A stretch of DNA of 64,000 bases from Pseudovirgaria hyperparasitica (taxonomy: Eukaryota): the NCBI GenBank assembly GCA_010093815.1, contig ML996572.1. One strand, written 5' to 3'. The notes beneath the pieces are model-generated. The model did not search any database, was not told the DNA's origin, and worked only from the letters and a program-made list of their open reading frames with translations. Position 1 is the first letter of the stretch. Each line of letters starts with the position of its first letter. Positions 20,110-44,214 of this stretch are shown here, piece by piece. Position numbers and translations under genes: made by a program.

Positions 20110-20315
20110 TATACTATATAAAACTTCTTTTACATCCCCAAGAGGCTAACTTGGTCCATTCGGGGTAATACAGCGAGATACATACCTTAATTAATAGAGC
20201 ACACCGAGTATACTAACTACTACTATATATACGTATGTATAGCGTCGAAACTAAGACGTTATCGCCGTGTAAAGATATATATATACCCTCTTAAAATCCT
20301 CACGGAGATAGAGGC

Positions 20316-21850
20316 ATGGACTATACTACTAGAACGCTAATACGCTAACCCCCTTTTATTAGTTAAGGGTAGCCCTTAACTAATAAATATAGCGGCCTTA
20401 GATACTAATATACCCCGGTATATACCGGATATACCCCTACCGGTATAATAGAAAAGGCTATATAGCGACATTACTAAGGGTAACTATATATCTATCTAAA
20501 ATATAGAACACACCTAAAGGCGCACGCTACTATAGATAGACGGAATAAAGGGGACCCCGAGAGGGGAAACCCTCCTAGATTATATTAACTACTAGGTAGT
20601 ACGTATAGAGAAGGAAGCCGGAGAGGGCTAGAAGACCCTTTTATATATATTCTAGGATCTTATCTAGAATCTAAAGGGAATTACGGAGAAGGAGAAGAAG
20701 ATATAACTAAGAGGACCGGAGGGTAGGCTCGACCGAATAGAGGCTAGCCTACGTAGAATCTAGGAGGAACTTACTTAAGGTAAGCGCCCTAGTATATAGG
20801 TATAAATAGTAGTAACACCGGAGGCTATACTACGGGCCCCCCGGACCGGTAACGTGGCGTATAGTATACGCGTCGTAATCTAGGATAAGGATACCCTAGT
20901 ATAGATCTAGTAAGTATCCCTAAAGGATATAGTAAGTAAGATTAATAAATAAAAGAGAATATAGTTAAATGTCGTTATCGCTAAACTCACGCTAGGAGGA
21001 GTAGTACTTACTACGATAACGAATATCGCGTAGTAGACTATCTTACGTGATCCGAACGCGATTAGTAGTATCTTCCTAGGCGCCTCTATTAGGGCGGCTA
21101 TATACCCGATATAGGTATACTCTATATCTATAAGCGGATAGGTTATCGGAGAAGAGGATATTACGTGGATAGAATAGTTAAACGAGCGAAAATACCTAGG
21201 GATTAAGATCGTAAGAGTATGGTAGAAGAATATATAAGAGATTAAAACTAGATTAAAGGTATACTCTACTATAATAGTAGAGCTTAAGGACCCCGCCCTC
21301 GCGTATTAAATTATATAAGAGGGATTTCTAGCGGAAGGGGAGCTTCTTATAGCGGAACTATAGAATAGAGTATAGGCGATAATATAGTGCTTTAACTATT
21401 AGGGATACGGGTATACGGTATAGCGGTACTTCTAAAAGACTAGGTATAGATAGTATTAATAAGAATATAGTATCTAGGAGTACCCCTACGGAATATAAGG
21501 AGAGGGCTAGAGGGATAGGGATACGGCGAAGTACTCTAACTATAACGGTAAGTACCCGTCGTAGTTAGCTACGTGCGCGAAACGTAAATAGGTTACTAAA
21601 TATATCTACTTAATCTAGATAAAGGGAGTAAGGTAGCTATAAACGATGCGATCTACTACTATTTCTCTCTTTACTATAATACTACTACTATAGACTACCT
21701 CCTTACGAGGAAGTAGTTAGAAATAGTAAACCATCCCGAGAAAGCTAATAATAGGACGGCCCTAAGGAATTACTAAGGCCGCCACCGTATAAGGATAGTC
21801 GTGTCTTAGAGGAACGAATATATAGGCCTATATATTCCCTAGCACCTAAT
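20316..21850 (+). pseudogene. LINE A ORF1 (gag-like, zinc knuckles)
   Basis: ATG 20316; ~21385-21430 reads *CFNY*GYGYTV*RY = QCFNCQGYGHxxxxC after de-RIP; further knuckles follow; end coordinate approximate. Confidence 0.8.
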
Positions 21851-22197
21851 AAGAGACTAAGATATACTCCTAATTATATAGGTAAACGTATAGTATAAAC
21901 GTAAGAACTAGGCGATACTCCTCGAGGAGACCGGAGCTATAATACTCGCTATATAGGAGCTATATAAACACTACTAGACGAATAAACTAATAATATACCT
22001 AGGATATTATATAATACACCCCCTAGGACTAGAGAGGAGAGTCCTCTTCTATGTCTATAAGTCTATTCTACTCTTATTATAGTTGTATACTAAACGGGAT
22101 AACCTCCGGATAATACTATACCTCTAGACGAATATTGGACCCCTCCATATATATAATATATATAATTAGAACTAATCGCTTTAGGCGGATAATATAC

Positions 22198-22569
22198 TAT
22201 GATGAGCCATCGCTACGTATGTCCCTTTTTGTAAATGGCTATGTCCTTAGTATAGTAGTCGCGACGAACTCACAAGTATCTCTCCTAGGTATTATGAGTT
22301 CTCTTTGAACGCACGACTTCTTATTAGTTCTCTTTTACGATAGGACGGGTCTATATAATACTCTTAATCGATTCATTAATAGCTAAGCCTAATAATTAAT
22401 ACCTATAGAGGCCCATGAACATAAGGAAAGGTCGAATTATCGAATATTAGTAATGGGGGAAGCGTGTCATTTAGAATGACCAAGGAAAACGCCCTCCTTA
22501 AATATATAATAAGCCATGTAATCGAGCTAGGGACACATATATATAGGGCTATAGGAGCGGCCTTCTACA
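22198..22569 (-). repeat. 3' LTR (372 bp)
   Basis: tatgatgagc...ccttctaca; direct repeat of 33241-33612; terminal TG mutated to TA. Confidence 0.95.
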
Positions 22570-22583
22570 TATACCTCCCCGGC
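22570..22583 (-). other. Polypurine tract of the Gypsy element
   Basis: Minus strand gccggggaggtata abuts the 3' LTR. Confidence 0.7.
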
Positions 22584-22719
22584 CTATAGAACTACTACCC
22601 TTAGTAGTATAGTAATTGTATAAGAAACCGTGTGAAGAACGCCTAAAAGAAAGACCTTAATATGAATAAAATGCGCCCCTAGTAAACCTCTCGGCGCGGG
22701 TAAATCTTAGCCCGGATTA

Positions 22720-25701
22720 TTAGTTAAGGGCAGCCCTTAACTAATAATCAGGTAGGTTTTTAGGCGCCTAATCTTAGTACTCGAGGTCGCGAGCTAGCTC
22801 CTAAAGAATCGTGTCGCTTATCTTAGAGAGGTTAGATTCCTCCTCGTCGGATAGTTCGTTAGGCCTCTCCTATCTATAGAAGTTCTCTTCGACGTTATCT
22901 AGGCCCGTGTTAGGCTTAAATTTCTTAAAATTAATTGGCTGCTTGGCGGCGCGCGCCTCGTTAAATTCCTTCTAGAACGACCTATCCCTATAGACTAGCC
23001 TTTCCTACCTTGCTATTTTCTTAAAGGTCTCCACGAATACCCTCGAGCCCTCCTTAAACCAGGCGTCTACCTTAGCTTTAAGTTGTTAAGGACTTGCGTT
23101 AAGCCACGCAGCTGCCTCTTCTTTCACCTTCTAGCTATCCTATCTTTTACGGCCGACTAATGCGTCGCTAACGGCGTTAAAACTCGGGAGTTAAACCGCG
23201 GCTGGGAAGGCAAAAGGAATCGCGCCGTATTTATTAGAAAATCCCGACGGAGACGTAGGTCCCGGAGTTAAATTCCTGTGAGCTACTGTGAGTTGTTCCC
23301 ATGTGCCCATTTTAGGCACTTCCATTGTTATATGATTAGGGCCAATCGCGACATACCATGGAAGTATCGTGCGTCTTCCACCCTTTACGGGACCCTAGGC
23401 GCCGTGTATTATTAGTGGGCTAGAGATGCGTACTTTAAGGGACTGGTAGGGGACCGGGACGAAGGGACTAAATCGTTTCCTATCGTCCGCATTATAGATC
23501 TTGTCATTAATAGCCGTAATTATACCGTTTCGATTGACCCCCTCGCGGAGCTTGGCCTTCGACTACTATTCGTTTAAGAACTTATAGAAGCGGGGAACGA
23601 TTATGGTATAGTCGTCACTTCGTTCGTCGTCGAGACTAATGCTTCCCTAGATTATATTAAACCCGTGTCTATCGCTAGGATCGAGGATTCGATTAATGGC
23701 GTTATCGAGATGCTTGAAACCCGTCTTATCGCCCCTATCCTAGGACTTCGCATAGTACGGGTACGAGATTAGATAGTAGTTAAGATCGGGCCGAAGAGCG
23801 ATATAGGTGAGCTAGTAAAGTGGGCATTACCTAATAAACTATTGGATATAGGAGTGGTATGTAGTTCGTAGCTAGCCGTAGTTCGATTTCTTATTAAACA
23901 TGCGCTAGTGGTACTTATACATATTAAATTCATCCCTTACGAGTTCTAGGATACTCTTATTAAGTATAGAGGTCGTCTTTTTAAGTGGCTCGAAGAGCCC
24001 TTTAATGTTAACACTTCCGGTATATTCCCACTCGTCGAAGAGTTACCTACCTATCCTACCGTCCTCCTTCTAAATCATAAATGTAATGCTAGTAAGGATG
24101 GTTTTAATATTAATGACTTACTTCGGGGTCTCTAGGGCCTAGTAATAATAGATACCTAATGCCTCTATCGGATAAGGTGGCCGCGCGTACTTCGCGAACT
24201 AGGTATAGCGGTCCTTATGAACTTTAAGGGCCCCTACGTTATCTCTAAACTTATATACCATTTTAAGTCTCGCTACTAGGTTTAAGTAGAATACGCTAAC
24301 GAGTATATTATTCTTTCTAGCCACGTCTTAGTAATGCTTGTAGTAGACTTTATACGGAATAGCTATGTTACCTATCTACGCTTTCTAGCGCACTAGTAGG
24401 GCCATTCCCTTAATGCTCGTGAAATTCTTCTTTAATGATATAGCTACCTTAAAAGTCTTCGTCACTAAAGGCGCGTATTAATACTTCTTAGGCTCGTTCT
24501 CTTCCTCGACCGATACTATCGTCTTAGGGTGCGAACTAAGAATAACCGGGGATTGTCGTATAGGCGCCCCTAGTAATTACTAAGAGCCGGTAGATAAGGC
24601 ACGTCCGCGAGTAGGTTTTGTCGGCGTGGCCGTAACGGGTACTAAAGACGTTCTCGTATGGCCCGGTAAGGGACGTTTACTAGTAGTAGTGGGAGGAATA
24701 CTTACTTTAAACGGATGACTAGCTTTAAAGAGACGACATACTACTAAACTAGGAGGCGTGCTTCGTGGAGGGGACTTTACCGTAGGCGTTACCTACACTA
24801 GTTTTAGCGACGGTAAGGTCTAAGGCGGAGGCGATGCACTCATCTCTTTGATTTATAGGTAGTATTCGACGGGCCTATGAACCATTCTACTTATCTATGA
24901 CTATTAACTAGCGGGGATAATAAGTCCCGTCTCGTTATAGAACGTTAGTTTATTTTATCGGCTAGGGTAGTTCGAGAGTTACTAGAGAGATAGGCCGTCC
25001 TTATTACTATCGCTGGCTAGGGCGGCATTAATATTAGAGCTCTAAAGATATGCCTTAATTCCTCTTCCCTTCTATCCCTGGCCGATTCGGGACCATAGGG
25101 ATGCGTTTAACTAGTTCCTTACTCTCGCCTATGTTCGCACTCGTGAGAGTGCTGCTAGCTTTTCTATAAAGTTCTATGTTTACTAGAGCTATCCGAGGGC
25201 GGATTAGAGTGACTAGCCGTCGTTATTAGGGAGGTCTTTTCGCTAGTTTTATAGGATTGCATTTTTAGCTTTTAGGATGCGGGAGTTGGTATCTCTTCCA
25301 CGACGAATTATCTCGTGGACTTCTTTCGGAATAGAGGAGTTAATCTTTACCTTACTATACCCTATTACGGCTCCTGCTTCCTAGAAGAGGTTAACTATAC
25401 TACTTGAGAGCTATTCTACGAGGCTAGTAATATAAAGGAGATTATTAAATGTGTCTAGAATATAGTCCTATCGCTCTTGCGGGTCCTAGATGGCGATAAT
25501 TCGGTTAATAGTAGACTTATTTATTTCTATAGCTTCTATAGCCTATCCGTGTGGAGTAGTAGATGGCCTTAATACCACGATAGCCGTTGATGGCCCTACT
25601 TTAGTACTCACGACTCTTAACTAGAACCGCGTCTATCTTATTAGTGCTTGACGATCTTATGACTCTTCACGGGTAGGCGTTTTCTTCTTCGGCGGGGCCA
25701 T
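22720..25701 (-). pseudogene. Extra ORF of the Gypsy element (~980 codons): unknown N-terminal region, S/P/T-rich linker, PhyH-like 2OG-Fe(II) dioxygenase domain; RIP-inactivated
   Basis: ATG at 25701 (MAPPKKKTP) is in the same frame as GFKHLD (23704-23721), II*GSISLDDERSDDYTIIVPRFYK, NE**, VPVPYQ, PLIIHG (His 23404-23406) and RRTILPWY; stops seen are TAA/TAG, explicable as RIP products. Confidence 0.8.
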
Positions 25702-25819
25702 TATTATTATTAGTTCTATCGGCGAGTTGCGTTCTAAGGAGAGGTAGTTTAAGCGAGGCGGAAGTAGAGGAGGAGGTTTTATCAATTAAGGAGGTATGGA
25801 GAGGTGTAAGAGGGAAGAG

Positions 25820-25826
25820 TTATATA
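25820..25826 (-). promoter_or_regulatory. Candidate TATA box followed by a CT-rich tract upstream of the extra ORF
   Basis: Minus strand tatataa-ctcttccctcttacacctctccatacctcc about 120 bp before ATG 25701; caveat: RIP inflates TA content. Confidence 0.4.
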
Positions 25827-25924
25827 CTATCTTAAGTTCTCTTTTTATGCCTCCTCGAATGCCGGGTATATAGTGATTTTTATAAATGATCCTTACTAAC
25901 GGCCGTAGGCCCGTATACGTGTCG

Positions 25925-26027
25925 AATCTATGAATAAATATATACTAGGTATATAGGAAATCTATGAATAAATGTGTCTACCGGGTATATGGCGGAATCT
26001 ATAAATAAATAGATACCGGGTATATTC
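25925..26027. repeat. Three tandem ~35-bp repeats (aatctatRaataaat...taccgggtatat) between pol and the extra ORF
   Basis: Three imperfect units directly visible. Confidence 0.85.
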
Positions 26028-26357
26028 TTATCCTCATGAGACTTCCTATAAGTATCTTTTTCTCTTATACCTTCTCCTTCTTTTCTTCCTTATTAGTTCC
26101 TAATAGGGCCCGTTCTATAGTAACGAAATGGGCCTTCGATGGGTGGGCTTCGATTACACGACCGGTTTTAATGTATGGTGGGTGGAATTTCGCGTAAACG
26201 CTATTATGTCTTCTTTCGAGCATTACTTACTTTAATAATGGGTTTTATTATTTTATAGTGATGATAGGGTTTATCATCCTCTTTCGATAATAGAGTTCAT
26301 CGTCATGAGACTACTTTTATAAGCATCCCTTCCCTCCTTAAAAAAACTTCTATCCCC

Positions 26358-29300
26358 TAGAAGGAGATGTCGATTCTAGGGAAACGCAAATATTCCTCTC
26401 TATTAAAGCCTTGCGGAGTAGGAATTACTACTTCCACCCGGGTTCGTGTGGCGTCGTCGAGGTGTTCCGTGAGTTATTTATGATAGTTTTCCTTATCGCT
26501 ACTCTTCTTATTTTCCTCGGTAATTCTTCTAATTGGTAGTCGCGAGGGCTTGTCGTGACTCTCGTTACTTATATTTCTCATGAAATATTTCTTTAACCTA
26601 TGGCTAGGAAACGTCCCTCTAAGCATGGCTCTATTAAGCTCCGCGAGCTTATAAGTGTAATTAAACACGGACTGGATTTTATATGGCCCCCTCTAATGCT
26701 ACCTTAGCTTTCGCTCTATGTTCTTCTATTACTACGAGTTATATAGGAGGATAATTATATTGACTGGTAACGACTCTTAACGAAGGTGATGGTCGTTATT
26801 CCATGCCTCTCTTGATTCCTCACGCGTTCGTGTCGCGTGGGCATGGGCCTCCTTAAGATTCTCGGATCTTCTCTTAAGTTATCTAGCTCGAAGAGCGAGT
26901 AAGTCGGACGTTAATCGTACCTCGTCCTAAGGGAGTATTCGGAGCGACTTAAATTTGACTTTAATAGGCATGATTGGTTTATAGCCGAGCACGAGGTATA
27001 CGGTACTATACCCTATGCTAGCACGTGTCGTTATTCTATCTATCTAGACGACCGCATGGAGGTAGTCGGGCTAGTTCTTGAATCCGCCATTAGTTATCTT
27101 CGCGAGAGTATTAGCGAGTAGTATAAAACTTCTCTCGATAATCCTATTTACTCGGGGATTATACGTAGACGTAACCTTCTAATAAATTCTATAGAGTCGG
27201 AGGAGCTCCTCTATGGCACCCATATTTTCTCTACTACCGTTATAGGTGATTTTAGGAATGATTCCGTATCTATAGATTACGTTCTTAAAGAGGAACTTTA
27301 TGACGACTATGGACGTGGCCGCCGTATATGCCTCCGCCTTAGTCTATCCGCTTAGCTATTCTCGTATAGATACTACTTTACTATACCCTATAGAAGGTGG
27401 TAGTATCGTTACGTCCAAGTGCATTCTTTACTAAAGAATAGGCGTTATAATGTGGTGGAGCCCTTTATCAAGACCTCCGAGGAGCTTACTTCGTTATTAA
27501 CATTTATTATAGGTTTTCACGTGCTATCGCACGTCTCTATATATACCTACCTACTAATACTTATCCTTAATCCTTCTAAGGGTCCCTTCGCTACCTCTAT
27601 GATCTATCTCGTTATAAGTAGTAGTAATTATACGCGCCCTAGTATTCGGATCCTTAATTACTCGTGTATGTTAGCGATGCCTATCTCCTCTCCGCTAGAG
27701 TATTCGGTCACGCACGAGGAACTTTAGGTAGTCGGTTATAAAGGCCTTATACGCTCGGTCGGTTAGGTCGGTTAGCCTCTTAAGTATAGTAAGATACTTC
27801 GTAATCCTCTACTATTTATCGCTATATTCATCTATTAAGGGAGACTTAATGGCGGTATAGTCGAGTATCTCTATCGTGTAATCTCTCCTACTAATAGGCT
27901 TGATTAACGACGTCTCTAGTATATTTATATATAGAGCCATGTCCACGAACTCGTCTAGGTCAAAGGTAGAGACGTCTGGTGGTTCTTCTCCTTCGTGCAT
28001 CCGTGAGATACCGTTGGCGACTACGTTACGCTTCCTAGGTACATGCCTAACTATAAAGTTCTATAGCTAAATCCACGCGAGCCACCTAGTAACGAGCGCC
28101 CCTAGTAAGTTAGTTACGGTGCGGTTAATTTAAGCGACTAGAGTATTCGCGTCTATTTCTATAATAAAGTACGTGCTATAGAGGTATTACCGGAACTTCT
28201 ATAACGCGTGGAGGAGGGCTCGGTACTCTAGTTTCATGGTGTCGTAGTTTCTCTTAGCTTTTAACCACATTCCTCTATTATACCGCGATAGCTAACATTT
28301 ACAATCCTCGTTCTCCTATATTAACATAGCCCCCTACCTAACGTTACTAGAGTCTACTACTAGGATTATATCTCCCGTACCTATCCCGTACCGTAACGTT
28401 ATTAGTGCGGGAGTAGTAGTTAGAGCTATCTTTAGCGCGTCCATCGAGGTCTACTCCTTAGCTATCTACTACTAGGCCGATTTATTCTTTAATAGTATAA
28501 ATAGCGGCGATGCGATAATAGCGTACCCGGGGATCTATATCCGGAAATATATATAAACGCTAAGGAAGGCTCGCACATTCGTCGTGTTTTTATAGGGTTT
28601 CTAGTCCCTAATAGTAGTAACCTTTTTATTACTCGGTCGCCTCCCTTTAATGCCGTAGACGTATCCTATAACGTTAGCGGCTTCAATATACTACTAAGTC
28701 TTCTTGCCACTTAGGGCGCATCCGGCGCGCTCTATATCCGCGAGAACCTTATCCACGTTAATTAAATGTTCTAGGATATACCTACGAATTCTAGGCAGGG
28801 CCTTCTTAGAGTTATATTTCGTCGTGGGTCCTTTAATGCCTAAGTTATCTAGGAATAGTAGAGCCCTCTCCGGGATGTGTTCTTATATAATAGTTAATAT
28901 AATCCTAACGAACTAAGCTACTAAATTAGTAGCCCCTTAAGGTAATATTATTCTATATAGTAATCCTAGGGGCGTTATAAACCCCGTTAAGTCTCGGTAA
29001 TACTCTACTAATAGAATCTAATCGTATCCTAAGAAGAAGTCGGTAAACGTTAAGACGGCTATCCCCGTAAAGTGCTCCGAGAATTCTTTACACGAGGGCG
29101 GCGTGGCCGCATTACGAATGGTGACTCGGTTGATTTCTATCGCCGAATTGATTAATCTATAATCTCGTTCCTTATTGGCTTCCTTCTTCTTTTCTACGAG
29201 AAAATAGGCGTTTCGATAAGGACTACTATAGGGCTCGAGCCTTCCGCTATTAAGACGCTCTTTTAGAATCGTGAGTACCTTCCCATGAAGGGCTCTAGGA

Positions 29301-32300: not shown

Positions 32301-33055
32301 TATTTTCGGACAAAGTGGATGGTGCCTTCCTCGAGGGCGGAGTTAAATAGAGAGAATTCCTTTAATAATTCTTCACGTAGCGTGGCCTACTACTATTTCT
32401 AAAACCCACCCATTCCTTTAATGGTAGGACGGAGATAGTCCTCGCAGTATAATGGTAGGGAGGTTATCTTCTTATTAGGCGGAACTTCGTAGTTTATATA
32501 TATATCCTCGTACTTCCGAAGGAAGGCCGTGATATTTATTCCTTTAAAGCGCTTGGGGGCTAGGGTGGGTAGAGGTACTATCCTTCCTTATCGCGCAAAT
32601 GCTACGAAGAAGTTAAGTATCTCTCTACGAGTTACTAGGTCGTTGTTTTAAGCTTCTATCGCACCATTACTAGTAGTAGGTGTGCTAGTAGAGACGCTAG
32701 GGGTAAGGTTATTAGTTAAGGGATTACCTTAACTAAAGGTTGGCCTAATGCGTCTACCTATAACACCTATCATCCCTTCTCCATGTTAATTAATCCCTTT
32801 ATAAGGTGAACTATTACTATCGTCTTCATCGATATAAGGTTCACGGTATTCTACTTATGTTATTATCTTCGTGTGAGGCGTTCCTAAAGTAGTATACTCG
32901 TATAGCCGTGTTTATAAATAACAGCTATGGTAGTACTAAACAGGTTATATTTGTCGTTTTTAAACTCTTCTTTACTGCTTTATCTGGCCCTGTTTTATAT
33001 CCTATTCCCCTGAGACATTTTCGAGTCGCGCTATCACCCGTATTAGCATGCGCAT
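26358..33055 (-). pseudogene. Gypsy gag-pol, apparently one reading frame, RIP-inactivated; ends approximate
   Basis: Gag PKRFKGINITAFLRKYE ~32510-32560; CITCREDHPIYRC knuckle ~31530-31571; protease LF(D)S(G)A(Q)VN ~30445-30470 and DLILGEP ~30230-30250; RT FLD(D)LGIKGP ~28825-28855; integrase YNPRVN ~27150 and GPY ~26681-26690; gag, PR and RT checked to be in the same phase. Confidence 0.88.
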
Positions 33056-33219
33056 GCTTTTTACAGCTACTTTTAAGAGGCTAGCCCCTAGCGACTCCGG
33101 ACTCCCTGTTTTCCGGACTCGTGGCTTCGATCTAGTAAGTCTAGACTACCTTATTAGGCACGCCATATACTTCCCCTAAGCTAGTTTCGGAGTTCTAATC
33201 TCCCCCTGTAAGTTCGTAG

Positions 33220-33236
33220 TCCGGGTACGACCTCTA
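33220..33236 (-). other. Primer-binding site, probably complementary to tRNA-Gln 3' end
   Basis: Plus strand ccgggtacgacctcta = ccgggcacgacctcca after two CA>TA reversions, matching my recollection of fungal tRNA-Gln 3' ends plus CCA; lies 4 nt from the 5' LTR. Confidence 0.7.
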
Positions 33237-33240
33237 AAAA

Positions 33241-33612
33241 TGTGATGAGCTATCGCCACGTATGTCCCTTTTTATAAATGGCTATATCCTTAGTATAGTA
33301 GTCGCGACGAACTCACAAGTATCTCTCCTAGGTATTATGAGTTCTCTTTGAACGCACGACTTCTTATTAGTTCTCTTTTACAATAGGACGGGTCTATATA
33401 ATACTCTTAATCGATTCATTAATAGCTAAGCCTAATAATTAATACCTATAGAGGCCTATGAACGTAAGGAAAGGTCGAATCGTCGAATATTAGTGATGGG
33501 GGAAGCGTGTCATTTAGAATGACCAAGGAAAACGCCCTCCTTAAATATACAATGAGCCATGTAATCGAGCTAGGGACACATACATGTGGGGCTGTAGGAG
33601 CGGCCTTCTACA
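33241..33612 (-). repeat. 5' LTR (372 bp)
   Basis: tgtgatgagc...ccttctaca with TG...CA termini. Confidence 0.95.
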
Positions 33613-36600
33613 ATACTTAAGGGTACTACCGAGCTAGGATAACATATCCTTCTAGGAGACTTTAACCTCTATTATAGCTAGTAGGGTAGACTAACCATTA
33701 CCCGCGAAGAGCTTCGAGCTAGAGAACTACGTACCTAATGCCACGGCTTTCTATACCTTCTTATACTAGTAGAATAGATTACCTAGCGAAAATATAAATA
33801 AGATAAGGGCGGATCCACACTCGACCTTACCCTAGCTACTAGATATATTTATAATAGGACTCGATACTACCGCCTAAGCCTTATATAGATAGACTCCAAC
33901 TATGAATGCATGGAGACTATAATAGATATATCCACCCCTTAAGACTAACGAGGGCGATAGCTATAGAAGAATACTAACTAGGAAAAGTATCTAAAGGACC
34001 TAGAATCGACGATCCTAGACCCGTCTATAGTCGACGTATCTAATAGCCCGGCTATTAACCAGGCCGTGAATATACTCCTATAGGCGTACTAGGGAGTAAG
34101 AGATAAACACGTGCCGTACCGAATATATAGACCCCTAGACCCGAAAAGTATACCTTAAGTGCGAGAGCATAGGCGAGAAGTCCGGAGATTATATATACGC
34201 GTATACTATAACTATACACCTAAAGCGTAGAATAAATAGAGAGAGGCGAGAAGATAATAAGATAAGGTCCTCCGTAATAAGCGACGTAAATAGTAGTATA
34301 TAGTTACGGATAGATACACACGTAATACTACTAGACTATAGTATATAGTAAAATAGGCTAAAAGCACCGCCTCCCCAACACCTATACTACTTATACCCCC
34401 TCTTATATATTAAGAAAAGATATACTCTATAAGCCTCGAGAAAATAGAGATCCTATAAGAGGTTATATTCCCTCTTCTAGAACCCGTAGACCTATTAGAT
34501 ATTAACGGCACGGAATACCCGGAAGCCGTAAGTATCCCTAGGGAAATCACGGATAACGATATACTCGGCGCTATTAAGATACTCCCGAACGATAAAGCGT
34601 CTAGGCTAGACGGAATTCCGAATTAATGTCTTAAGAGGACTATATAGGCGACCTTACTAATTATAGGCCATATATTCCGAGCGTACGCCCGTATAGGATA
34701 CCACCTATAGAGCTTCTAAACTATATACACGGTTATACTCCTAAAACTAGGGAAGAGCCTAAACACGCCGAAGGGATGGAGGCCGATCGCCCTCCTCTCC
34801 TACCTTAGTAAGGTACTAGAAGCTACGATTACTAAGAAGATAAGTATAGTAGTATAGGTACACGGCCTTCTTCTAGTAAACTAGAAGGCGAAGATAGGAA
34901 GCTCCCTAATTATAGCCATTTAATATATTCTTAAGGTTATCTAGACTATATAGAAACACGGACGAGTCGTCACGCTACTCTCCCTAGATATAGTAGGGGC
35001 GTTTAATAAGGTAAACCATATAAGACTTATCTATAACCTCCGGATAAGGCGAATACCTAAGTAGATTACATGATTTATATAGTCCTTCCTCGCGTAAAGG
35101 ACTACTTAAATATATATCCCCGGATACCGAAGCGAATATAAGGAGATGGTATACGGTATCCCGTAAGGGAGTACCATCTCCCTAATCCTCTTCCTCTTCT
35201 TTATAGTAGACCTCCTTTAGGGAATAGAATATATAGAGGTAGTCGGATACGCGGACGATATATATCTCCTCGCGGTCGATAGTAGTACTAGTAGAATATA
35301 TACACGACTCGAACGAGACTATAAGAAATAGGTCTAGTAGGTAAAGCGCCACGGAGTAAAATTCGCACCTAAAAAATACTAGCTTATATACTTTATTAAC
35401 CGCCGTAGAGAATAGACTACTAGGGAGGGGGTATGTCGCCCCTAAATCGACGCCTTTATAGAACTACTAGTATAGAGTATACGAGTACTCGGCGTTATAA
35501 TCGATAATAAGCTAAAATAGGGACTATAGGTGGTACACGCCGTCTCTAGAGCCCTCTAGGTAGAAACCGCTATACGCCGGATTACGGTATCTACGTAGAG
35601 AATAGCCCGGGATAAGGCGAGATAGCTATACGTCTCCCTAGTACGTCTAGCCTTTATATATAGATACGAGTACTAGTACACGGCCCTTATATAAGCTCGG
35701 CGAGTAAAGCTTAAGTCTATATAAAACCGTATACTCCGCCTTATCTCCGGTATATATAAAGCTACTAATATAACGCTCCTCTAACGCGAGATAAATATAA
35801 TAAGTATATAGAACTTCTACTAGATATAGAGACTTATATACTTTACTAAATAATAAGTATAAGAACGTGGAGGAGATAGGGTATATACCTTCGCTATACT
35901 ACGCACACGTATCCGCGTGTATTACTAGGCCCTCCCTACTATAGAATAAACTCGAGTATAATATAAATACTATATAGAGGCGGACTCGAGCTAGACCGTG
36001 TAGAAGGTTTAAAATAACCCGGATACCGTCCTAAGCTAATAGAGCCCTAAGGAGCTTAGCCGCGTTATACGGTCGTAGATCTAGGATAAATAGAGGGAGG
36101 TACTTAAAGCCTAGTGGGCCTCCTAATAGGATAGGTATCTAGAATAGATCTAAGGGCCTTAGAAGGAACTGAGTAAATAGATATATAAAGGGCTAACGAA
36201 GGCCTAAGTATCTATACTCCTCTAAGCCTAAATAGGCGCTATAGGTCTCCTATATTATCTCTACTAGAGAGGCGTCCTAGATATATCTCCCTAGTACGAG
36301 GACTACGGCCGGAGAGGCATAATACGCCACTATCTCGCGACGTACTCTAGCCTCTATACCCTAAGATAAGCCCTCGTACGTATAACGAGGACCTCTAACA
36401 TTACGCGATAGCTTAATAAGTACCCTAAGGACGTCGCCTAATAGATGCTCGTATACCTTTCTCTCCCCTAGTTCTAGTAGATCCGTGTATATATGCCGGA
36501 AGAAGCCCGATATATACTAGAAGAACCCCGGTATATGTCGGAAGAACCCCGGGAGAACCGCGATTATTAGTTAAGGGCAGCCCTTAACTAATAATCTCCG

Positions 36601-36843
36601 CATCTACACGTGCTACCTAAGGGTAAACTATTATAATATAGGCTATAGGCCTATAGGTAGCCCCTAGGGCTATATATATATAAAGAACGAGAGGATAGAC
36701 AGAGCGTAGTTATAGATATAAGGGAGTTTTTCCTATTCATAGGTTTCTTCTTATATAGTAGCTTAGACTAGAGGAGGCATGCGCCTATAGAGTAGTACTC
36801 TACCTAGTTTACTAATATTATTATTATTATTATTATACTATAT

Positions 36844-38800
36844 CTTAAGTCTCTTAAAGTACTCTATTAGATAGATAATAATAGAGATAACTTACTAGAT
36901 AGCCCCGAACTTACTATTACCCTTACGACCCTCTAGATAATAAGTAGTAACTTAGAGTAGTAGAAGTAACTTAAGATATTACCCTATAACGTCCTAATTA
37001 TAGTTAGTAAGGCTACTAGTCTAGATAAATAGAGGCTTCTAATTTCGAGTATTAACTCTCTTTATATAAGTCTTAACTTATTAAGTTATAGACTTAATTA
37101 TTATCGCCTTGTCTTTATTAGCCTAAGTCTTAAGCGCGCGTCTTAAATACTTCCTTAAACTACTAGGTTAGTAGCTTAATTAAGTATACTTATTTCTCTT
37201 ACAGGCTATCCTAACGCGCGTAGCTTCTCTACGCTTTATCTCTATCTCTTTTACCCTCTCGCGTTATATAACCTAGGTAATATAGTACTAGAAGAATTAG
37301 TAGAGGGCTTCTCTTAGCTTAATTACCCTTTTAATTACGGAGATATAGCTATTCTATTATATCTTTATAGGTATAATAATATCTAGTAGCTTAAAATTAG
37401 AATCTATAAAGGTAAATATAAGTAATAGAATAGATATAATAGGGTAACGTACCTAGCTTAGGAAGACTATTATTAATATCTCTCTAAATATCGTAGAATC
37501 GCCGTAAGCGTTCTAGAGTATTAATATACTAGATAATTATAAAAAGAGTACTAAGAGACCTAAACTTACGCCACTTATTAATTAATATATTCTTATCTTT
37601 TAAATCTAGTACGTCTTTATAAGTAAGCTTATCCTTCCTAAATAGAATACTCTTTATAATAAGATTAATAATATAGTAAAAGTACCGTATATAAAGATTT
37701 AGACGCTAGTTATCTCTAGAGCTAACTCTAGACTAAATTTCTTTATAAATATACTCTATCGTAGTATTATTATTTAAAGTAGAGTTAAGGATAAAGTAGC
37801 TAAGGTTCTTCGCCATAAGGTTATACTAATTTAGTATAGAGAGGGTAAGTTTAGTATAATTTAGACCTATATAGACTCTAATTATCTTAGGTAAGTTAAG
37901 GAGGAAGTCGTGGAATTCCCCTAGTAGTAATATTTATTAGTATACTTATTCCTTAGTATCTAAACTTTAAACTCTACGTAATTCCTTATCTTCTATATCT
38001 ATAAAATAGATATAATATTCTATAAGTATAAATCTCTACTAACGTATTATCTAGCTATTAAAGGAAACGTATATCCTTAATAAGGCCCTAGCTATAGCCT
38101 CTATAAGTATACTAATATTCGTATTATATATACTAATAATATCACGACGTAGGGTTTTCTATATAATTAGCTAGTCTACTACGTATAGATTTACTACTCG
38201 AATTATCTTAATAAAGAAAGGACTCTCTATCTCCCTTAAGGCGTAGTTACTATATATAATCTACTTTAGTACCTTCTTTATAAACTTATCTATATAGTAA
38301 GCTTTAATAATAGCGTTTACAGTAGCCTAGCTAATACTAGACCTATTAAGGAGTTACTAAAGAATAGAAGAAGTACTATCTATAATACTATCTTAAGTAA
38401 TTCCGTAGATAGCTTCTATATAGCGCCTAGTAGCTAAGGTCTATTAAGTAGCGTGGTATATTTCTATAAGATAAAGCTTTTTAAGATTATAATAATAGTA
38501 ATAAACCTAGTAGATTCGGCCTATTTTCTTCTCCTTAACCCTATATCTATAGCGCTATAGCTAGCTTAGCTCGCTACGAGTTAAGAGACGCTTAATAGAG
38601 ATATAGTATCTATAGAGGCGTATCTAGTTAATTATCTTATAGCCTTTAGAAGACTTAAAGTTAAAGGAAATATTATCTAAGTTATCTCGCTAAGCACGTG
38701 TGATTATTAGAGTATTACTAGAGATAGATACTACTAGTAGTATATTAAGTAACTCGGTTATAGACACGGTAGCTAAGGATAGAATAGATATAATTAAGGT
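36844..38800 (-). pseudogene. hAT transposase N-terminal and catalytic part, RIP-inactivated
   Basis: De-RIPed minus-strand motifs: BED-like YWVCxxC...TS..RHM..IHGI (~38400-38520), GYFILDSASNNDT (~37765-37803), RCFCHIINL (~37660-37687), TRWNS (~37348-37362). Confidence 0.8.
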
Positions 38801-38914
38801 TCTTTAGAGAGGTAAAAACGCGTATTAATTTATAGATATTAGGAATATTTAACATCCGTAGATATATCTTATATAGTATATCTATCTAATTTATATTACT
38901 AACTAGAATTAATG

Positions 38915-38919
<5 letters not shown>

Positions 38920-38945
<26 letters not shown>

Positions 38946-41900
38946 TTATATAACTAGGTAGAGTAGTACTCTATAGGCCTATGCCTCCTCTAGTCTAAGC
39001 TACTATATAAGAAGAAACCCTATAGGGAAAAACTTCCTTATATCTATAACTACATCTCGTTAAACCTCTATTTCGTCTTAAGTATATAGCTATAGGGTAC
39101 GCCTATTAGCCTATAGCCTATATTACCGTTATTTTACCCTTAGGTAGCACGTATAGGTGCGGAGGTTATTAGTTAAGGGCTGCCCTCAACTAATAATCAG
39201 GGTTCTCCCAGGGTTCTTCCAGTATATATCGGGTTACTACCAGCATATACCGGGTCTCTTCCAGTATATATTTCCGGGTCTACTAGTACTAGAGGAGTAG
39301 TAAATATATAAGTATCTATTAGGAGACGTCCTTAGGGTACTTATTAAGCTATTATATAATATCTAAAGTCTTCGTAATATAGATAAGCTATTACCGTTAT
39401 ATATAGAGGTTAGGGTATATAGCTAGATAGTGGCGTATTATACCTCTCCGGCTACACGCCTTACACTATAGGGAGGTATTAGGAATGCCTCTCTTATAGA
39501 TATAGTATAGGAGTCCTATAGCGCCCGTTCGGGCTTAGATAAGTATAGATACTTAGGCTTTCGTTAGCCCTTTATATATCTATTTACTCGGTTCCTTCTA
39601 TAGCCCTCGAATCTACTCTAGGTACCTATCCTACTAGAAGGTCTAGTAGATATAGAGTATCTCTTTCTACTTATCTTAAGTCTATAACTATATATTTTTT
39701 ATAAGTTCTTAAAGGCTCTACTAGTCTAGAAGAGCGTCCGGATTATCTTGGACTTCTTATACTACTTAGCTAGAGTCGGCTTCTATTAAGCACCTATACC
39801 GTATTCGATTCTAGCCTATATATAGGAGTGCGCGGTAATATATACTAATTCGTACACGTAGCGCGGCGAAAGTATATTCTACGTTTTCTATACGTTTCTA
39901 TACTTATTATTTAGTAAAGTATACTACCCTCTATATCTAGTAGAAGTTATATATACTTATAACGTCTATCTCGCGTCGTAGTAGTACCGTGTTAGTAGCT
40001 TTATATACGCCTAATATAAGATAGAGTATACGGTTCTATATAGATTCGAGCTTTATTTACCTAGTCTATATAAGGGCCGTGTACTAGTACTCGTGTCCGT
40101 ATATGAAGGCGGGTCGTACTATAGATATATATAGCTAGCGTGCCTTATCCCGGGCGGTTCTCTATATAGAGACTATAATCCGTCGTATAGCGGCTTCTAT
40201 CTAGAGGGCCCTAGAGACGGCGTATACTACTTATAGTCTCTATTTAAGCTTACTATCTAGTATAACTCCGAGCGTGCGTATGCTTTATACTAGTAGTTCG
40301 TTAAATACGTCGATTCGGGGGCGTTATTCGCCTTCCCTAGTTATCTATTTCCCTTAATAATTAATAAAGTATATGAGCTAGTATTTCTCTAGGGCGAACT
40401 TTGCTCTATGGCGTTTTATCTACTAGAGGTACCTCTCGTGGTCCTATTCTAGTCGTCTACACGTTCGGTTAGTATTATTATTAATAGCTAGGAGGTATAT
40501 ATTATCGGCGTATCCGACTACCTCTATATACTTTATTTCTTAAAGAAGGTCTACTATAAAGAAGAGGAATAGGATCGGAGAGATAGTACTCCCTTATAGA
40601 ATGCCGTATACTATCTCTTTATATTCGCTCTAGTACCTAGGGATATATATCTAAGTTATTCTTTCTATAAGGAATAACTATATAAAGCGTGTAATCTATT
40701 CTAGTATTTATCTTATCCGGAGGTTATAAATAAGTCTTATATAGTTTACCTTATTAAACGCTCCGGCTATATTAAGGGAGAGGAGCGATACTACCCGTCC
40801 CTATTTCTATACGGCCTAGACGACTTTAATAATATATTAGATAGCTATTATTAGGGAGCTATCTATCTTTACCTTCTAGTTCGGAGGGAGAAGATTATAT
40901 TCCTATACCGCGGTACTTATCTTCTTCGCTATTATAGCCTCTAGTATCTTACCTAGGTAGAAGAGAAGGGCGATTAGTCTCTATCCCTTTAGGGAGTTAG
41001 GGCTCTTTTCTAGTTTCGGGAGTATAATAGTATAGGCAACTCGGAAGCTCTAGGGGTGGTACCCCTACGTAACGCATGCTTAGAATATATAAGTAATAAG
41101 CGGTAGGGTCGCTTTTATAGTATTTTTTAGGTATTAATTTAGAATTCTATCTAGTCCGGGTGCTTTATCATTTAGGAGTATCTTAATAATATTAAGTATA
41201 TCCTCCTCCGTAACTTCTTCGGGGATGTCTACCGTATATAGATATTTAGCGCCGTGAACGTCTAATAGGTCTACTAGTTCCGGGAGAGGGAACATGGCCT
41301 TCTATAGGGCCTTAGTTTTCTTAAGGCCCGTGGAGTATATTCTCCCCTAATATATTAGGGGAGGCATAAGTAGCGGGGGTGTTAGAGTATCTACGCCCTT
41401 AGCCTATTTCGCCATACGCTATAGCCCTATTATATATTATATCTATTAACTAGTAATTATACGCTACTATTTACGCCTTTTATTATAGAGAACTTTATCG
41501 CGTTATTGTATCGCTTCCTTCTATTCTTCCTATAACTTAGGTATCCTTATATAGTATACGCGTCTATATAGCCTTCGGGCGTCTTATCTACTTTCCCGTA
41601 CTTAAGGAATCTCCTTTACTTCTAGGGGCCGGTATATTTAGTATAGTACGTGTTTATTTCTCGTATTCTAGTATATTTATAGGAGTGTCTATACGGCCTA
41701 GTCTATGGCTAGGTCGTTAGATATATCGACTATAGAGGGATCTAGAATCGCCGATTCTAGGTCCTTTAGGTACTTTTCCTAGTTAGTGTCCTTCTATATC
41801 TATTATCCCCGTTATTTATTCGGGGTATACACGTCTATTATAGTTTCTATATATTCGTGGTCGGAATCCGTCTATATCTAGCCTAGGCGGTAGTATTAGA

Positions 41901-44214
41901 TCTGGTAACTAATATACTCCGTGGCGAAGGTAAGGTTAAGCGTAGACCCGTCTTTATCCTATTTATGTTTTTTCTATATAACTTATTCTATAGGTATAAG
42001 TAGGTATAGGAAGTCGTGGTAGTGGGTACGTAGTTCCCTTACTCTAAGTTCTTCCCTAACCACGGCTAGGCCTCTCTACTATTAGTGGTAGAGGTTAAAG
42101 TCTCCTAGGAGGATATGTTACCCTAGTTCCGTAGTACCCTCGAGTATCTCGTCTAGTATAAGTATACGTTATTAGTTATATATATTATATATATATAGGG
42201 GGCCTATATCTATTTATAGGTGTAGTATTATCCTAAGGTTATCGTACTCGGTATACGACTATAATAAAAGTAGTATTAACCTATAAATGTGGAAGAGGAC
42301 TCATCTTTCTAGTCCTAGAGGGTATATAGTATGGTATCCGGGGTGTGTGGTTAGTTTACTTATCTAGTAGTATTTATAGGGTTCCTAGATAGCGAGTATT
42401 ATAGCCCTAGTCTCTTTAAGGAGCGTCGCCTAGTTCTCTCTTTTATATTATATATTTATCTATATAATTTAGAGTATATTCTAGTCTCTTATTAGATACT
42501 AGAGAGTATATATACCTATATACTTATTCCTCGGAGGCGCGACTATCCTCGCGCGGTAGCGGCTTTAACTATACCTTTTAGTCGTCCTATCGTCTTTAGA
42601 ATAGTCTACTATTCTATCTAACTATCTTCTAGAGGGGAGGTTAGGGGTATTATAAAGGAAGGGCTTATAGTAGGTATTATATTCTATAACTATCTCGCGC
42701 CTCTCGATTTTAATTATATGAATATATTCTATAACCTATTTACGTTTTATATATGTTAATAACCATGATAGGTATTTCCTATTATAGTTTAAACACTATA
42801 CTATATCCCTATTTCTTAGTCTATCTCCTCGTGGTTTATAAGGGCACTCCTAGATAGCGTGGTCCCTACGGTACTATCCGTACTTAGTCTTCTATAAGTA
42901 CCTTTATATAGTATATCTATACCCTTAATAGTTAAAGTACTATATTATTACCTATACTCTATTCTATGGCTCGGCTATAAGGAGCTCTCCTTCTATTAGA
43001 AATCCCTCCTATATAATATATTATACGAGGGCGGGGTCTCGGAGCTCTATAATTATAGTAGAGTGTTTTTTCGCCGTCGTCTTAATCGTCTATAGGTTCT
43101 TCTACTACGCTTTTATAATCTTAATCCCTGGGTATTTTTGCGTATTAGATTATTCTATACGCGTAATATCCTCCGCTCCGATAGCCTATCCCCGTATAGG
43201 TACTACGTGTACTATAATCGGGTATATAGCTACTCTAATAGACGCGCCGGGGAAGATACTATCTATTACGTTTAGATCTCGCGAGATGTTTTACTACGTA
43301 GTATTCATTATAGTAGTAAGTACTACCCTACCTAGCGTAACTTTAGTAGCTATAACACTCGACTATATTCCTTTCTATTCGTTAATCTTATTTATAATTT
43401 CCTTTAGAGATATCTATTAGACCTACGCTAGCGTGTTCTTATTCTAGATTATAACACGTATACTATATACTCTATCTATAGTCCTAGTAGTTCTTAGTAT
43501 AGTGGCTCCGGGTATTACTATAATCTAAGCCTACGTATTAGGGCGCTTACCTTAGGATAGCTCTTTCTAGATTCTCCGTAGGCTAGCTTCTATTTAGTTA
43601 AGCCTACTACTAGGTTCCTCTTATAGTAACTTTCTTTCTTCCTCCGTAATTCCTCTTAGATTCCGGATAAGGTTCCGGAATATATAAAGGAGGGTCTTCT
43701 TTCCCTCCTCGGCGTCCCTCTCTATATATATTATCTAGTATTTAATTTTATCTAGGAGGGTCTCCCCTCTCGGGGTCCCCTTAGTCTAGGTTATCTATAG
43801 TGCTTCGTACCCTTAGTTAGTTCCTATATTTTAGATAGGTGTCTAGCTATCTATATTAATATTACTATATAGCCGTTTCTACTATACTAGTAGGGGTATA
43901 TCCGGCGTATGCTAGGGTATTATAATACCTAAGGCCGCCATGGTTATTAGTTAAGGGTAGCCCTTAACTAATAAAAGGGGGTCGGCGTATCGGCGTTTAT
44001 TAGATATAGTCTATACTTATATTATTAAAGAGTCTTTAAGTATATATATATAGTATCTCTATACGTTAGTATCGTTATATATTATACACTATACGTATAC
44101 ACGTGTGTCGGAGGTTATTATACTTAGTATACTCTATTATTTAATGTATATAAATCGCTGTTTTACCCCGAGTTGACCAGTTTGGTCCGTTAGGGTATGA
44201 GAAGTTTTTTTTTT
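38920..44214 (-). mobile_element. Full-length Tad1-like LINE (copy B, ~5.3 kb), diverged relative of copy A, RIP-mutated
   Basis: 16-bp TSD tagaattaatgtataa 38904-38919 / 44215-44230; (TAA)n tail on plus strand ~38917-38944; VVGYAD(D) at 40501-40521, LLGDFNL ~42090-42112; ORF1 ~42490-44014, ORF2 ~39170-42497. Confidence 0.92.

Follow-up and report, generated by a model that had tools for sequence, protein, structure and literature searches.

ORF3, a dioxygenase gene of fungal mobile elements, and its companion palindromes, as seen from a retroelement nest of Pseudovirgaria hyperparasitica

Background

Why should one and the same long palindrome be present in two unrelated families of retroelements? 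This question is raised by a 64,000-nt stretch of contig ML996572.1 of the fungus Pseudovirgaria hyperparasitica (NCBI GenBank assembly GCA_010093815.1), which is called the window in what follows and in which all positions without a locus name are given. Here a Ty3/Gypsy retrotransposon with long terminal repeats (LTRs) is nested in one copy (LINE1) of a family of long interspersed nuclear elements (LINEs), and a second, inverted copy of the same family (LINE2) lies nearby. The Gypsy element carries a third open reading frame (ORF), named ORF3, and copies of a palindrome are found in the Gypsy element as well as in both LINEs. A reading of the letters of the window alone, referred to below as the original prediction, had proposed that the Gypsy element encodes a factor with an oxygenase domain, comparable to the anti-silencing VANC proteins of plants, that this factor acts on the dyad site, and that the LINEs exploit it. 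To our knowledge, only few cases of transposon accessory genes that fight host silencing have been described, examples being plant VANC and, as a proposal, the TET/JBP genes of fungal DNA transposons. We followed up this prediction by analysis of the ORF3 protein, of its homologues and of the loci that carry them. Across its different carriers, ORF3 is accompanied by a long perfect palindrome that is inherited with it, and the Gypsy element of the window belongs to a widespread fungal lineage.

Results

ORF3 and its oxygenase domain

ORF3 is located at 25701-22762 on the minus strand, which is the strand of the Gypsy element, between the integrase (INT) region and the 3' LTR. It comprises 980 codons, 60 of which have become stop codons by repeat-induced point mutation (RIP). 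As judged from the translation and the homologues, the protein begins with a basic run resembling a nuclear localisation signal, which is followed by a helical N-terminal domain (N-domain), a linker, a CxC...CxxH motif and the dioxygenase domain. A search with the ORF3 translation, in which the stops were replaced by X, yielded 797 representative homologues at E <= 0.001, including 166 at E <= 1e-30. Most of these are about 900 aa long and match ORF3 residues ~475-910; conversely, a tblastn search with the homologue P0001 matches the window at 24465-22975. The homologues are named 'hypothetical' in Coccidioides, Rhinocladiella, Sclerotinia borealis, Xylona, lichen fungi and others, and two of those listed bear a PhyH label. 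The homologue alignment shows no variation at H664, H766 and R776 and hardly any at D666, and all four residues are kept in the window copy. The same HxD...H...R conservation was seen again in a second alignment of the ORF3 family, where the CxC...CxxH motif stands just upstream of the HxD region. R776 would be the residue that binds 2-oxoglutarate (2OG).

No Pfam family matched the ORF3 of the window at E <= 10, and no oxygenase match was obtained in a six-frame read-through of the whole nest, where the only Pfam matches were to RNase H (RH), INT and reverse transcriptase (RVT) domains. Pfam PhyH (PF05721) reached 16-18.5 bits in 4 of 13 homologues, which is under its cut-off of 22 bits, and is precomputed on 12 of the 120 ORF3 relatives listed. 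Tet_JBP matched neither the window ORF3 (E <= 10) nor any of the 13 homologues (E <= 0.1). A profile search of the ORF3 alignment against the sequences of the PDB gave nothing below E 0.08, and its weak rows were helical-bundle noise.

Fold comparisons were run on models of the homologue P0009 and of the ORF3 of L010, one of the loci described below, and not on the broken copy of the window. With the domain model of P0009 (pLDDT 90), Foldseek found PhyH-like 2OG-Fe(II) oxygenases at E values of 9e-8 to 6e-7 (probability 1.00). The results of VIA-align showed that the enzyme domain of the full-length L010 model is most similar to GIG2/DUF1479 (6akz; Z 20.8, root-mean-square deviation 3.6, 282 residues aligned) and YbiU (4rgk; Z 20.7), followed by PhyH-like enzymes (Z 13-15.6), whereas NgTET1, at the level of the generic fold (Z 8.2), and ALKBH3 (Z 8.5) score far lower. 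With the full-length model VIA-align covered residues ~488-795. Judging from the modelled fold, the C-terminal half of ORF3 (residues ~463-910, encoded at 24315-22972 on the minus strand) is a DUF1479/PhyH-like 2OG-Fe(II) dioxygenase of a large unnamed family in Pezizomycotina. The enzyme is not of the TET/JBP, AlkB or JmjC type. The oxygenase domain of the original prediction is thus borne out by homologues, by the kept HxD...H...R residues and by a fold of DUF1479/PhyH type.

In the full-length model of the L010 protein, a confident helical N-domain (residues 16-205) and a disordered linker (210-358) precede the enzyme domain. The linker is acidic in most homologues, with a median net charge of -9. 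A homodimer prediction with two copies of the L010 N-domain (16-210) gave a score of 0.00, from which no verdict follows. The window copy is broken; intact copies of ORF3 exist in L008, L010, L025, L047 and other loci.

The palindrome in the window

The dyad of the window, TTATTAGTTAAGGGCAGCCCTTAACTAATAA, consists of two 15-nt arms around a single centre base. It is perfectly palindromic, and in four copies the palindrome reaches 35 nt (GA...TC). Its 25-nt core gave 14 strand matches, corresponding to 7 sites, whereas 100 dinucleotide shuffles gave none (mean 0.00, maximum 0). Neither a site nor a lone half-site was found anywhere in the 64 kb outside the three elements (20.3-44.0 kb).

Three of the sites are located in the Gypsy element. 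A perfect 35-nt copy at 22715-22749 lies 13 nt past the last ORF3 codon and ~145 nt before the 3' LTR; a second copy, at 29992-30026, separates protease (PR) and reverse transcriptase (RT) and has stop codons in all frames; the last, at 32709-32739, is situated ~500 nt inside of the 5' LTR, in the leader or at the start of gag, and has 2 mismatches in the 25-nt core. Of the three Gypsy copies initially claimed, the third is therefore degenerate. The remaining four sites belong to the LINEs, each copy of which has one in its 5' untranslated region (UTR) and one in its 3' UTR. LINE1 carries them at 20356-20386, where the centre reads TAG by RIP of CAG, and at 36562-36596, a perfect copy of 35 nt. 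LINE2 carries them at 43944-43974, where the centre derives from CTG in the orientation of the element, and at 39164-39198, where one arm reads TTGAGGG and not TTAAGGG. The prediction that both ends of the LINEs have the same site holds for both UTRs of both copies, but the sites are placed ~225 nt inside the 5' end and ~245 nt before the 3' tail rather than at the very ends. Set against the same flanks, some copies have A as centre base and others T, an example of the flip being the two 5' copies, with CAG in LINE1 and CTG in LINE2.

The likeness between the sites of the window ends at the palindrome itself, that is, after 31-38 nt. A shared flank of 62 nt (29992-30053 versus 36535-36596) was considered and rejected, as it was not upheld by blastn-short. 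The only RIP target within the palindrome is the CpA at its centre, and three to four copies have been hit there. Since CpA and TpG are lacking except at the centre, survival of the palindrome under RIP is not evidence of selection. No deletion of 31-37 nt at any palindrome was seen among the gaps and joints listed for the contigs of four sequencing runs.

Several sources of the palindrome were tried. A junction of an LTR-LTR circle was rejected, the LTR ends (TGATGAG... and ...CTTCTACA) being unlike the palindrome. A footprint of a piggyBac/Tc1-like element and a miniature inverted-repeat transposable element were rejected as well, target duplications being lacking: a flanking direct repeat of 2-8 nt is absent in 33 of 35 palindrome copies, and the other two have repeats of 2 nt, which is the chance level. 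Relative to shuffles, the hairpins predicted for the palindrome units are strong (z -3.7 to -6.1), as is trivial for palindromes, and no family of Rfam matches the units. Another near-perfect palindrome of 30 nt, GCGATCCCAGCTCTATAGGGCTGGGATCGC, which is unrelated to the dyad, was noticed at 8023-8052 in the gene-rich part of the window that is free of RIP.

Palindromes at other ORF3 loci

Metagenome contigs were scanned with an ORF3 alignment of 12 rows, which gave 339 relatives, and the best 80 loci, amounting to 1.02 Mb, were examined (names such as L010 refer to these). The dyad of the window is not among them (0 core-like matches in the 80 loci), and no relative of the LINE was found there. 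The ORF3-selected loci harbour palindromes of their own, however distinct in sequence: we counted 34 different perfect palindromes with arms of 12-21 nt, and 80 near-perfect palindromes versus 14 in simulated loci. GC-centred palindromes numbered 42 (one of them a trivial G/C run) versus 0, 0 and 0 in three simulations. Loci and window have a common build: the outer arms are rich in AT, the centre is rich in GC, and the base at the very centre is free.

These palindromes are 25-43 bp long and specific to clades. The one of the L010 clade is GATTTTCCATGCCGGGCATGGAAAATC; L001, L002, L003 and L024 share CCTAATCGCAAGCCSGGCTTGCGATTAGG; L014 has CATTTCCCAGCCCCGGGTTGGGAAATG and L040 has AGTTTGGTCAACTCCCGGAGTTGACCAAACT; that of L051 is GCCAAAGCCGCGCGGCGCGGCTTTGGC, with related forms in L037 and L044. 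As to their positions, the palindrome of the L010 clade is found ~180 nt before the ATG of ORF3, between a CCAAT and an ATTGG. In L001, L002, L003, L011, L012, L013, L014, L024 and L040 it is placed in frame within the disordered linker of ORF3, and in L019, L051, L037, L044 and L017, as in the window, it follows just past the ORF3 stop. Linkers within pol, PR-RT as well as RH-INT, also contain copies (L040, L020 and the window). Several loci contain multiple copies of their local type in unrelated flanks (three each in L002, L040, L011 and L044, and six in L014), the three of L044 all lying just past the ORF3 stop. Because the palindromes of the loci are clade-specific and are placed in or beside ORF3, we concluded that gene and palindrome travel together.

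Two arrangements in L014 were recorded separately. At 6286-6504, upstream of ORF3, the palindrome is repeated together with its flanks four times in tandem with a 63-nt period, and at 9473-9556, inside ORF3, two copies 57 nt apart code for a duplicated peptide of 19 residues.

The symmetry of the palindromes is preserved as their sequences diverge. Between L010 and L035 a double change from G/C to C/G has kept the symmetry, and clades whose proteins are 45-65% divergent have entirely different arms, the dyad of each clade being perfect. Such maintenance of symmetry through divergence needs either selection for symmetry or a mechanism in which one arm templates the other. The original prediction had pointed to the question of whether palindrome variants track protein clades, and the answer is yes: over 18 independent loci, half-site distance is correlated with ORF3 protein distance (Mantel Spearman r 0.73), a value that 0 of 5000 permutations reach.

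Carriers of ORF3 relatives

L010 and L008 are intact Gypsy elements in which gag-PR is followed by RT-RH-INT, reached via a -1 frameshift, and then by ORF3. In L047 and L040 a Gypsy polyprotein likewise precedes ORF3. The element of L045 (1273-11925, 10.65 kb, LTRs of ~265 nt) belongs to an abundant RIP-mutated family, and its ORF3 stops just before the 3' LTR, in the same way as that of the window. A match to a pol domain was obtained in 40 of the 80 loci; that of L037 is downstream on the opposite strand, and the match in L023 is confined to an RNase H fragment some distance away. Helitron Rep/helicase genes (Helitron_like_N, PIF1, DUF6570) adjoin ORF3 in L037, L044 and L052, head-on or tail-on, and other helicases (L011, L017) and a DUF6589 gene (L051) are among its further neighbours. 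Since ORF3 is found in Gypsy elements, beside Helitron genes and in other contexts, the gene moves between kinds of mobile elements.

Two carriers showed additional features. In L002, inverted repeats of 71 nt (92%; 5225-5295 and 11560-11631) enclose a 6.4 kb unit comprising an integrase-core (rva_4) gene, the ORF3 relative and a further ORF in front of which stand a palindrome and a TATA-like box; this unit may be a DNA-transposon-like carrier of the ORF3 module. Pol is expressed by a -1 frameshift in L010 (4660-4710), and also in L008, where gag-PR ends with a GGGAAAC heptamer and a hairpin is predicted 7 nt further on.

Anatomy of the nest

The RIP-mutated repeat block occupies 19.0-45.0 kb of the window and is bracketed by normal genes. 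The GC content is 29-42% across the nest, TpA/ApT is 1.57-1.76 versus 0.68-0.76 in the flanking genes, and (CpA+TpG)/(ApC+GpT) is 0.07-0.46 versus 1.21-1.24. Both indices agree with the heavy RIP of the elements that had been predicted. Repeat analysis and alignments resolved three elements, namely one Gypsy element, LINE1 and the inverted LINE2.

The Gypsy element, identified by its LTRs, Pfam matches and pol alignment, extends over 11.4 kb (22200-33612, minus strand), is RIP-mutated and is nested in LINE1. Its LTRs (22200-22569 and 33243-33612) are 370 nt long, begin and end with TG..CA and are ~97% alike. The flanks read ...ATACTA / element / ATACTT..., with ATACT in offset position, blurred by RIP; a target-site duplication of 4-6 bp would be expected. 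Pfam matches on the minus strand are RT_RNaseH (43.6 bits) and Integrase_H2C2 (22.4 bits, under the cut-off of 25.5). The pol region at 26564-29746 aligns to the intact RT-RH-INT of L010 over 1066 residues (38.6%), and a protease motif was seen upstream of RT in the same frame, so the pol order is PR-RT-RH-INT.

LINE1 is cut by the Gypsy element. Its 5' part (~20130-22199, plus strand), recognised by alignment to LINE2 from ~20139 and by a CCHC-like motif in the read-through translation, contains the 5' UTR, an ORF1 with CCHC-like knuckles and the start of a putative endonuclease; its 3' part (33613-36840, plus strand), recognised by RVT_1 and the tail, contains the rest of the putative endonuclease, RT (34768-35500), the 3' UTR and an (ATT)n tail. 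LINE2 (~38920-44200, minus strand), recognised by RVT_1 and by alignment to LINE1, is arranged tail-to-tail with it. RVT_1 matched LINE1 with 62.2 bits and LINE2 with 40.4 bits (cut-off 29.6). Both LINEs are without LTRs, and the (ATT)n tails are at 36810-36843 and 38912-38945. The two copies are colinear and ~75-80% alike, and their differences are mostly transitions. The putative endonuclease gave a weak match to Exo_endo_phos_2 (E 0.017, 15.4 bits, under the cut-off of 27.4), and a GDFN motif was recognised by eye. No second ORF3 homologue is present anywhere in the window, in agreement with the prediction that the LINEs do not encode the oxygenase protein.

A different dyad, GGAYCTAGAATCG-N-CGATYCTAGRYCC, occurs at 33993-34025 and 41735-41767, the same internal position in the putative endonuclease-coding part of both LINE copies. 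Its mismatches are compatible with RIP, and it could be a LINE-specific hairpin or due to chance.

Contigs from the sequencing data were also aligned to the nest. From two runs of the source sample at least 47111 and at least 16642 contig pieces align over the Gypsy element and the LINE, from which it follows that both families are highly repeated in that sample. Two runs of another sample labelled as the same species, called the second sample below, gave LINE contigs that are ~4 kb long and much less RIP-mutated; A>G and T>C make up most of the changes relative to the window. One of these less mutated contigs spans 39133-39349 without gaps, and the alignment of another begins at 20348, just before the 5' palindrome of LINE1. 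The second sample has next to nothing over the Gypsy element, a low cover that is not evidence of its absence.

Between the two LINE tails lie ~2 kb (36841-38920) with 29% GC and no likeness to the remaining window. Contigs of the second sample match 37548-37922 at high depth, and this stretch is therefore another repeat family. Short inverted matches bracket the 25 kb nest (19079-19113/44594-44628 and 19188-19210/44479-44501; 24 and 23 nt, 92-96%). An older DNA transposon that received the LINEs may have left them as remnants of its terminal inverted repeats, or they may be due to chance.

Discussion

A tentative reading of the system

The reading that we favour, tentatively, is that of a cis-trans module. 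The ORF3 gene, encoding ~900 residues, and its clade-specific palindrome of 25-43 bp would form an accessory module of mobile elements in Pezizomycotina, in which the palindrome stays in or beside ORF3 and often has further copies at insertion-tolerant places elsewhere in the element. The palindrome would be the cis-acting site of the module, probably bound as double-stranded DNA by a dimer of ORF3 or by a recruited partner, and the binding would direct the enzyme onto the very element that encodes it. The LINE family would have taken the same site into both of its UTRs through recombination or template switching, and would thereby come under the same factor; such free-riding is a proposal drawn from this one genome. 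Recognition of the dyad in a symmetric manner fits the data because the centre base flips between copies. The binding partner of the site, the nature of the target as DNA or RNA, the substrate of the enzyme and any effect on silencing are points that we infer. Going further, one may picture a self-addressing modifier of chromatin or nucleic acid, that is, a dimeric dioxygenase encoded by transposable elements (TEs), tethered by a fast-diversifying dyad and portable between Gypsy elements, Helitrons and others, whose dyad is captured by LINE-type parasites; it would be an enzyme-bearing fungal counterpart of VANC that works against the heterochromatin or methylation following RIP. This extended form we hold to be improbable.

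A number of observations weigh against the cis-trans module. Binding of the ORF3 protein to the site is itself a proposal made from sequence. Over 46 proteins the N-domain has a median pI of 7.9 and a net charge of +1, which is near neutral and not basic, and it gave no usable match in the protein atlas, no Pfam match and no recognised DNA-binding fold. The nearest folds to the enzyme act on small molecules or amino acids and not on nucleic acids or histones; on the modelled fold, a direct demethylase role of ORF3 has no support. The tracking of protein clades by the palindromes is also expected from the co-descent of linked DNA, and the 80 loci were selected through ORF3, so that the palindrome counts give no background rate for the rest of those genomes. 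At the thresholds used, 25 of the 59 loci with a whole ORF3 neighbourhood have no palindrome. Some of these are RIP-worn copies that were missed; several are intact genes, and L004, L021-L023, L041-L043 and L047 look truly devoid of one. Furthermore, the palindromes occupy exactly the insertion-tolerant positions in which a self-spreading module would leave them, and the CCAAT and TATA-like boxes beside some copies fit a promoter element bound by a host factor.

Other explanations of the palindrome

The palindrome might be a short selfish sequence able to place copies of itself at permissive spots in co-resident retroelements, such as UTRs, domain linkers and intergenic gaps, its link to ORF3 being a matter of co-descent. 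Such spreading could take place by hairpin-promoted template switching during reverse transcription or by gene conversion. It would account for the discrete boundaries without flanking homology between sites, for the presence of one unit in two unrelated retroelement families of the window, and for the in-frame copies in disordered or cleavage linkers that leave the ORFs intact (L002, L014, L040). In L040 and L020 the palindrome sits within an insertion in the RH-INT linker that the relatives L047, L010 and L030 do not have, a fact that speaks for spreading and against the cis-trans module. Copy number and position vary among clades with similar half-sites (L010 versus L009, L012 and L014), the unit is duplicated in tandem in L014, and a hairpin intermediate would allow the centre base to flip. 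The 33 of 35 copies without a target-site duplication tell against spreading and show that neither cut-and-paste nor integrase-type insertion is involved. Moreover, the palindrome is found with ORF3 beside Helitron genes and in other settings outside retroelements, the window has no copy outside TEs in its 64 kb, the extra copies at the loci are always of the local, ORF3-linked type, and the long-term perfect symmetry needs selection or a templating mechanism. We regard spreading on its own account as possible but doubtful.

A dimeric transcription factor or chromatin protein of the host could also bind the palindrome, which would then act as promoter or enhancer for the ORF3 transcript or the LINE, with ORF3 merely the gene controlled. 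The location of the L010-clade palindrome between CCAAT and ATTGG ahead of the ORF3 ATG agrees with this, as do the L002 copy that directly precedes a TATA-like box and an ORF, the two L017 copies in an intergenic gap, and the LINE copy in the 5' UTR, which is where LINE promoters lie. Many clades have in common an outer TTTCC...GGAAA and a CCSGG centre, which is what recognition by a conserved host factor would demand, but the arms are wholly different elsewhere (the L002, L040, L051, L052 and L057 types and the window). Many copies are found within coding sequence, after it or in a 3' UTR, perfect symmetry over 27-35 bp exceeds the usual sites of such factors, and the identical 31 nt in LINE and Gypsy argue for transfer of a unit and not for convergence, so that we consider control by a host factor rather unlikely. 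Still less probable in our view is a function as RNA, in which the transcript would form a hairpin with a stem of 12-16 bp and a 3-nt loop, serving in gag-PR/pol recoding, packaging or dimerisation, export, recognition of the 3' UTR by the LINE RT, or protection from RNA defence. The units do fold strongly, although any palindrome would, and every copy is within a transcribed part of its element. The window copy at 29992-30026 maps ~10-20 codons from the position of the GGGAAAC slippery site and hairpin of L010, and 6 of 6 L014 copies have a sense-strand G-T pair, which is tolerated in RNA; yet sense-strand A-C or G-G mismatches in L040, L012 and L011 leave no consistent wobble signature. The positions are too varied for a single positional RNA signal, the PR-RT copy of L040 is part of one continuous ORF in which recoding is unneeded, the module is also found beside Helitrons, which have no RNA intermediate, and Rfam has no matching family.

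Significance

The analysis reveals what appears, from homologues and modelled fold, to be a large unnamed family of TE-borne dioxygenases in ascomycetes, which occurs as the third ORF of Gypsy elements and beside Helitron genes and is accompanied by palindromes. TE-borne dioxygenases as such are already known. A full-text search, with subscription journals and Repbase reports outside its reach, found no literature on the DUF1479/PhyH-like ORF3 family or its palindromes, and this family with its palindromes would thus appear not to have been described. If a protein-site system is indeed at work, it would offer a testable model of sequence-specific self-targeting by fungal retroelements, a route for non-coding hitchhikers such as the LINE, and a natural set of orthogonal protein-site pairs. 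If instead the palindrome propagates itself, it would be a mini-repeat inserting in frame in nuclear eukaryotic DNA; we know of none, with no literature search made on this point. On either reading, the palindromes can be used as annotation markers for the lineage of ORF3 elements in RIP-degraded genomes.

Comparison with known systems

VANDAL elements bear arrays of motifs. VANC-type, sequence-specific anti-silencing of these Mutator-like elements of Arabidopsis is said to have been described by Hosaka et al. in 2017. ORF3 resembles VANC in being an accessory gene that is dispensable for the chemistry of transposition, and in being accompanied by short multi-copy motifs of the element, sometimes in tandem, that differ between clades of the accessory gene. 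The two differ in that ORF3 is a fusion with a 2OG-Fe(II) dioxygenase, for which no relation to VANC in sequence or fold is claimed; in that the sites accompanying ORF3 are long perfect palindromes, some of them in coding linkers, whereas those of VANDAL elements are short direct motifs; and in that the carriers of ORF3 are fungal retroelements and Helitron-adjacent loci. The VANC-like analogy with which the original prediction began stands for the architecture, that is, accessory gene, multi-copy motifs and clade-specific sequence, and is a proposal as regards binding and anti-silencing.

With regard to the palindromes, the palindromic elements of Rickettsia and the GC clusters of mitochondria insert in frame into genes, and the REP/RAYT systems of bacteria are small palindromic repeats. 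The palindromes linked to ORF3 are likewise discrete and short, are found in many unrelated contexts and enter coding linkers in frame. They differ in being nuclear and fungal, in their length of 25-43 nt and in having no target duplication, and they are consistently tied to one gene family, without a known mobilising nuclease.

With regard to the enzyme, TET/JBP dioxygenase genes pass between lineages of fungal DNA transposons, Helitrons included, and have been proposed to serve escape from silencing (PMC12730594). The same paper records none in retrotransposons and no palindromes marking the ends of the gene (PMC12730594). ORF3 is similar in being a 2OG-Fe(II) dioxygenase gene distributed across heterogeneous fungal transposons, and it differs in its DUF1479/PhyH-like fold (Z 20.8 versus 8.2 for NgTET1), in its presence in Gypsy elements and in its palindrome. 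Ty3/Gypsy elements of orchids are reported to carry an AlkB-type domain for demethylation of m6A in RNA (PMC9289625). They would be another Ty3/Gypsy lineage with a fixed extra 2OG-Fe(II) oxygenase domain, which belongs to a different oxygenase clade (ALKBH3 Z 8.5 versus DUF1479 20.8) and to a different kingdom. In its C-terminal fold and its HxD...H iron site ORF3 agrees with DUF1479, YbiU, GIG2 of Candida albicans and PhyH (6akz, 4rgk, 2a1x and others). In contrast to these enzymes, ORF3 scores under the Pfam PhyH cut-off, adds ~450 N-terminal residues with a helical domain, an acidic linker and the CxC...CxxH motif, and is borne by transposable elements.

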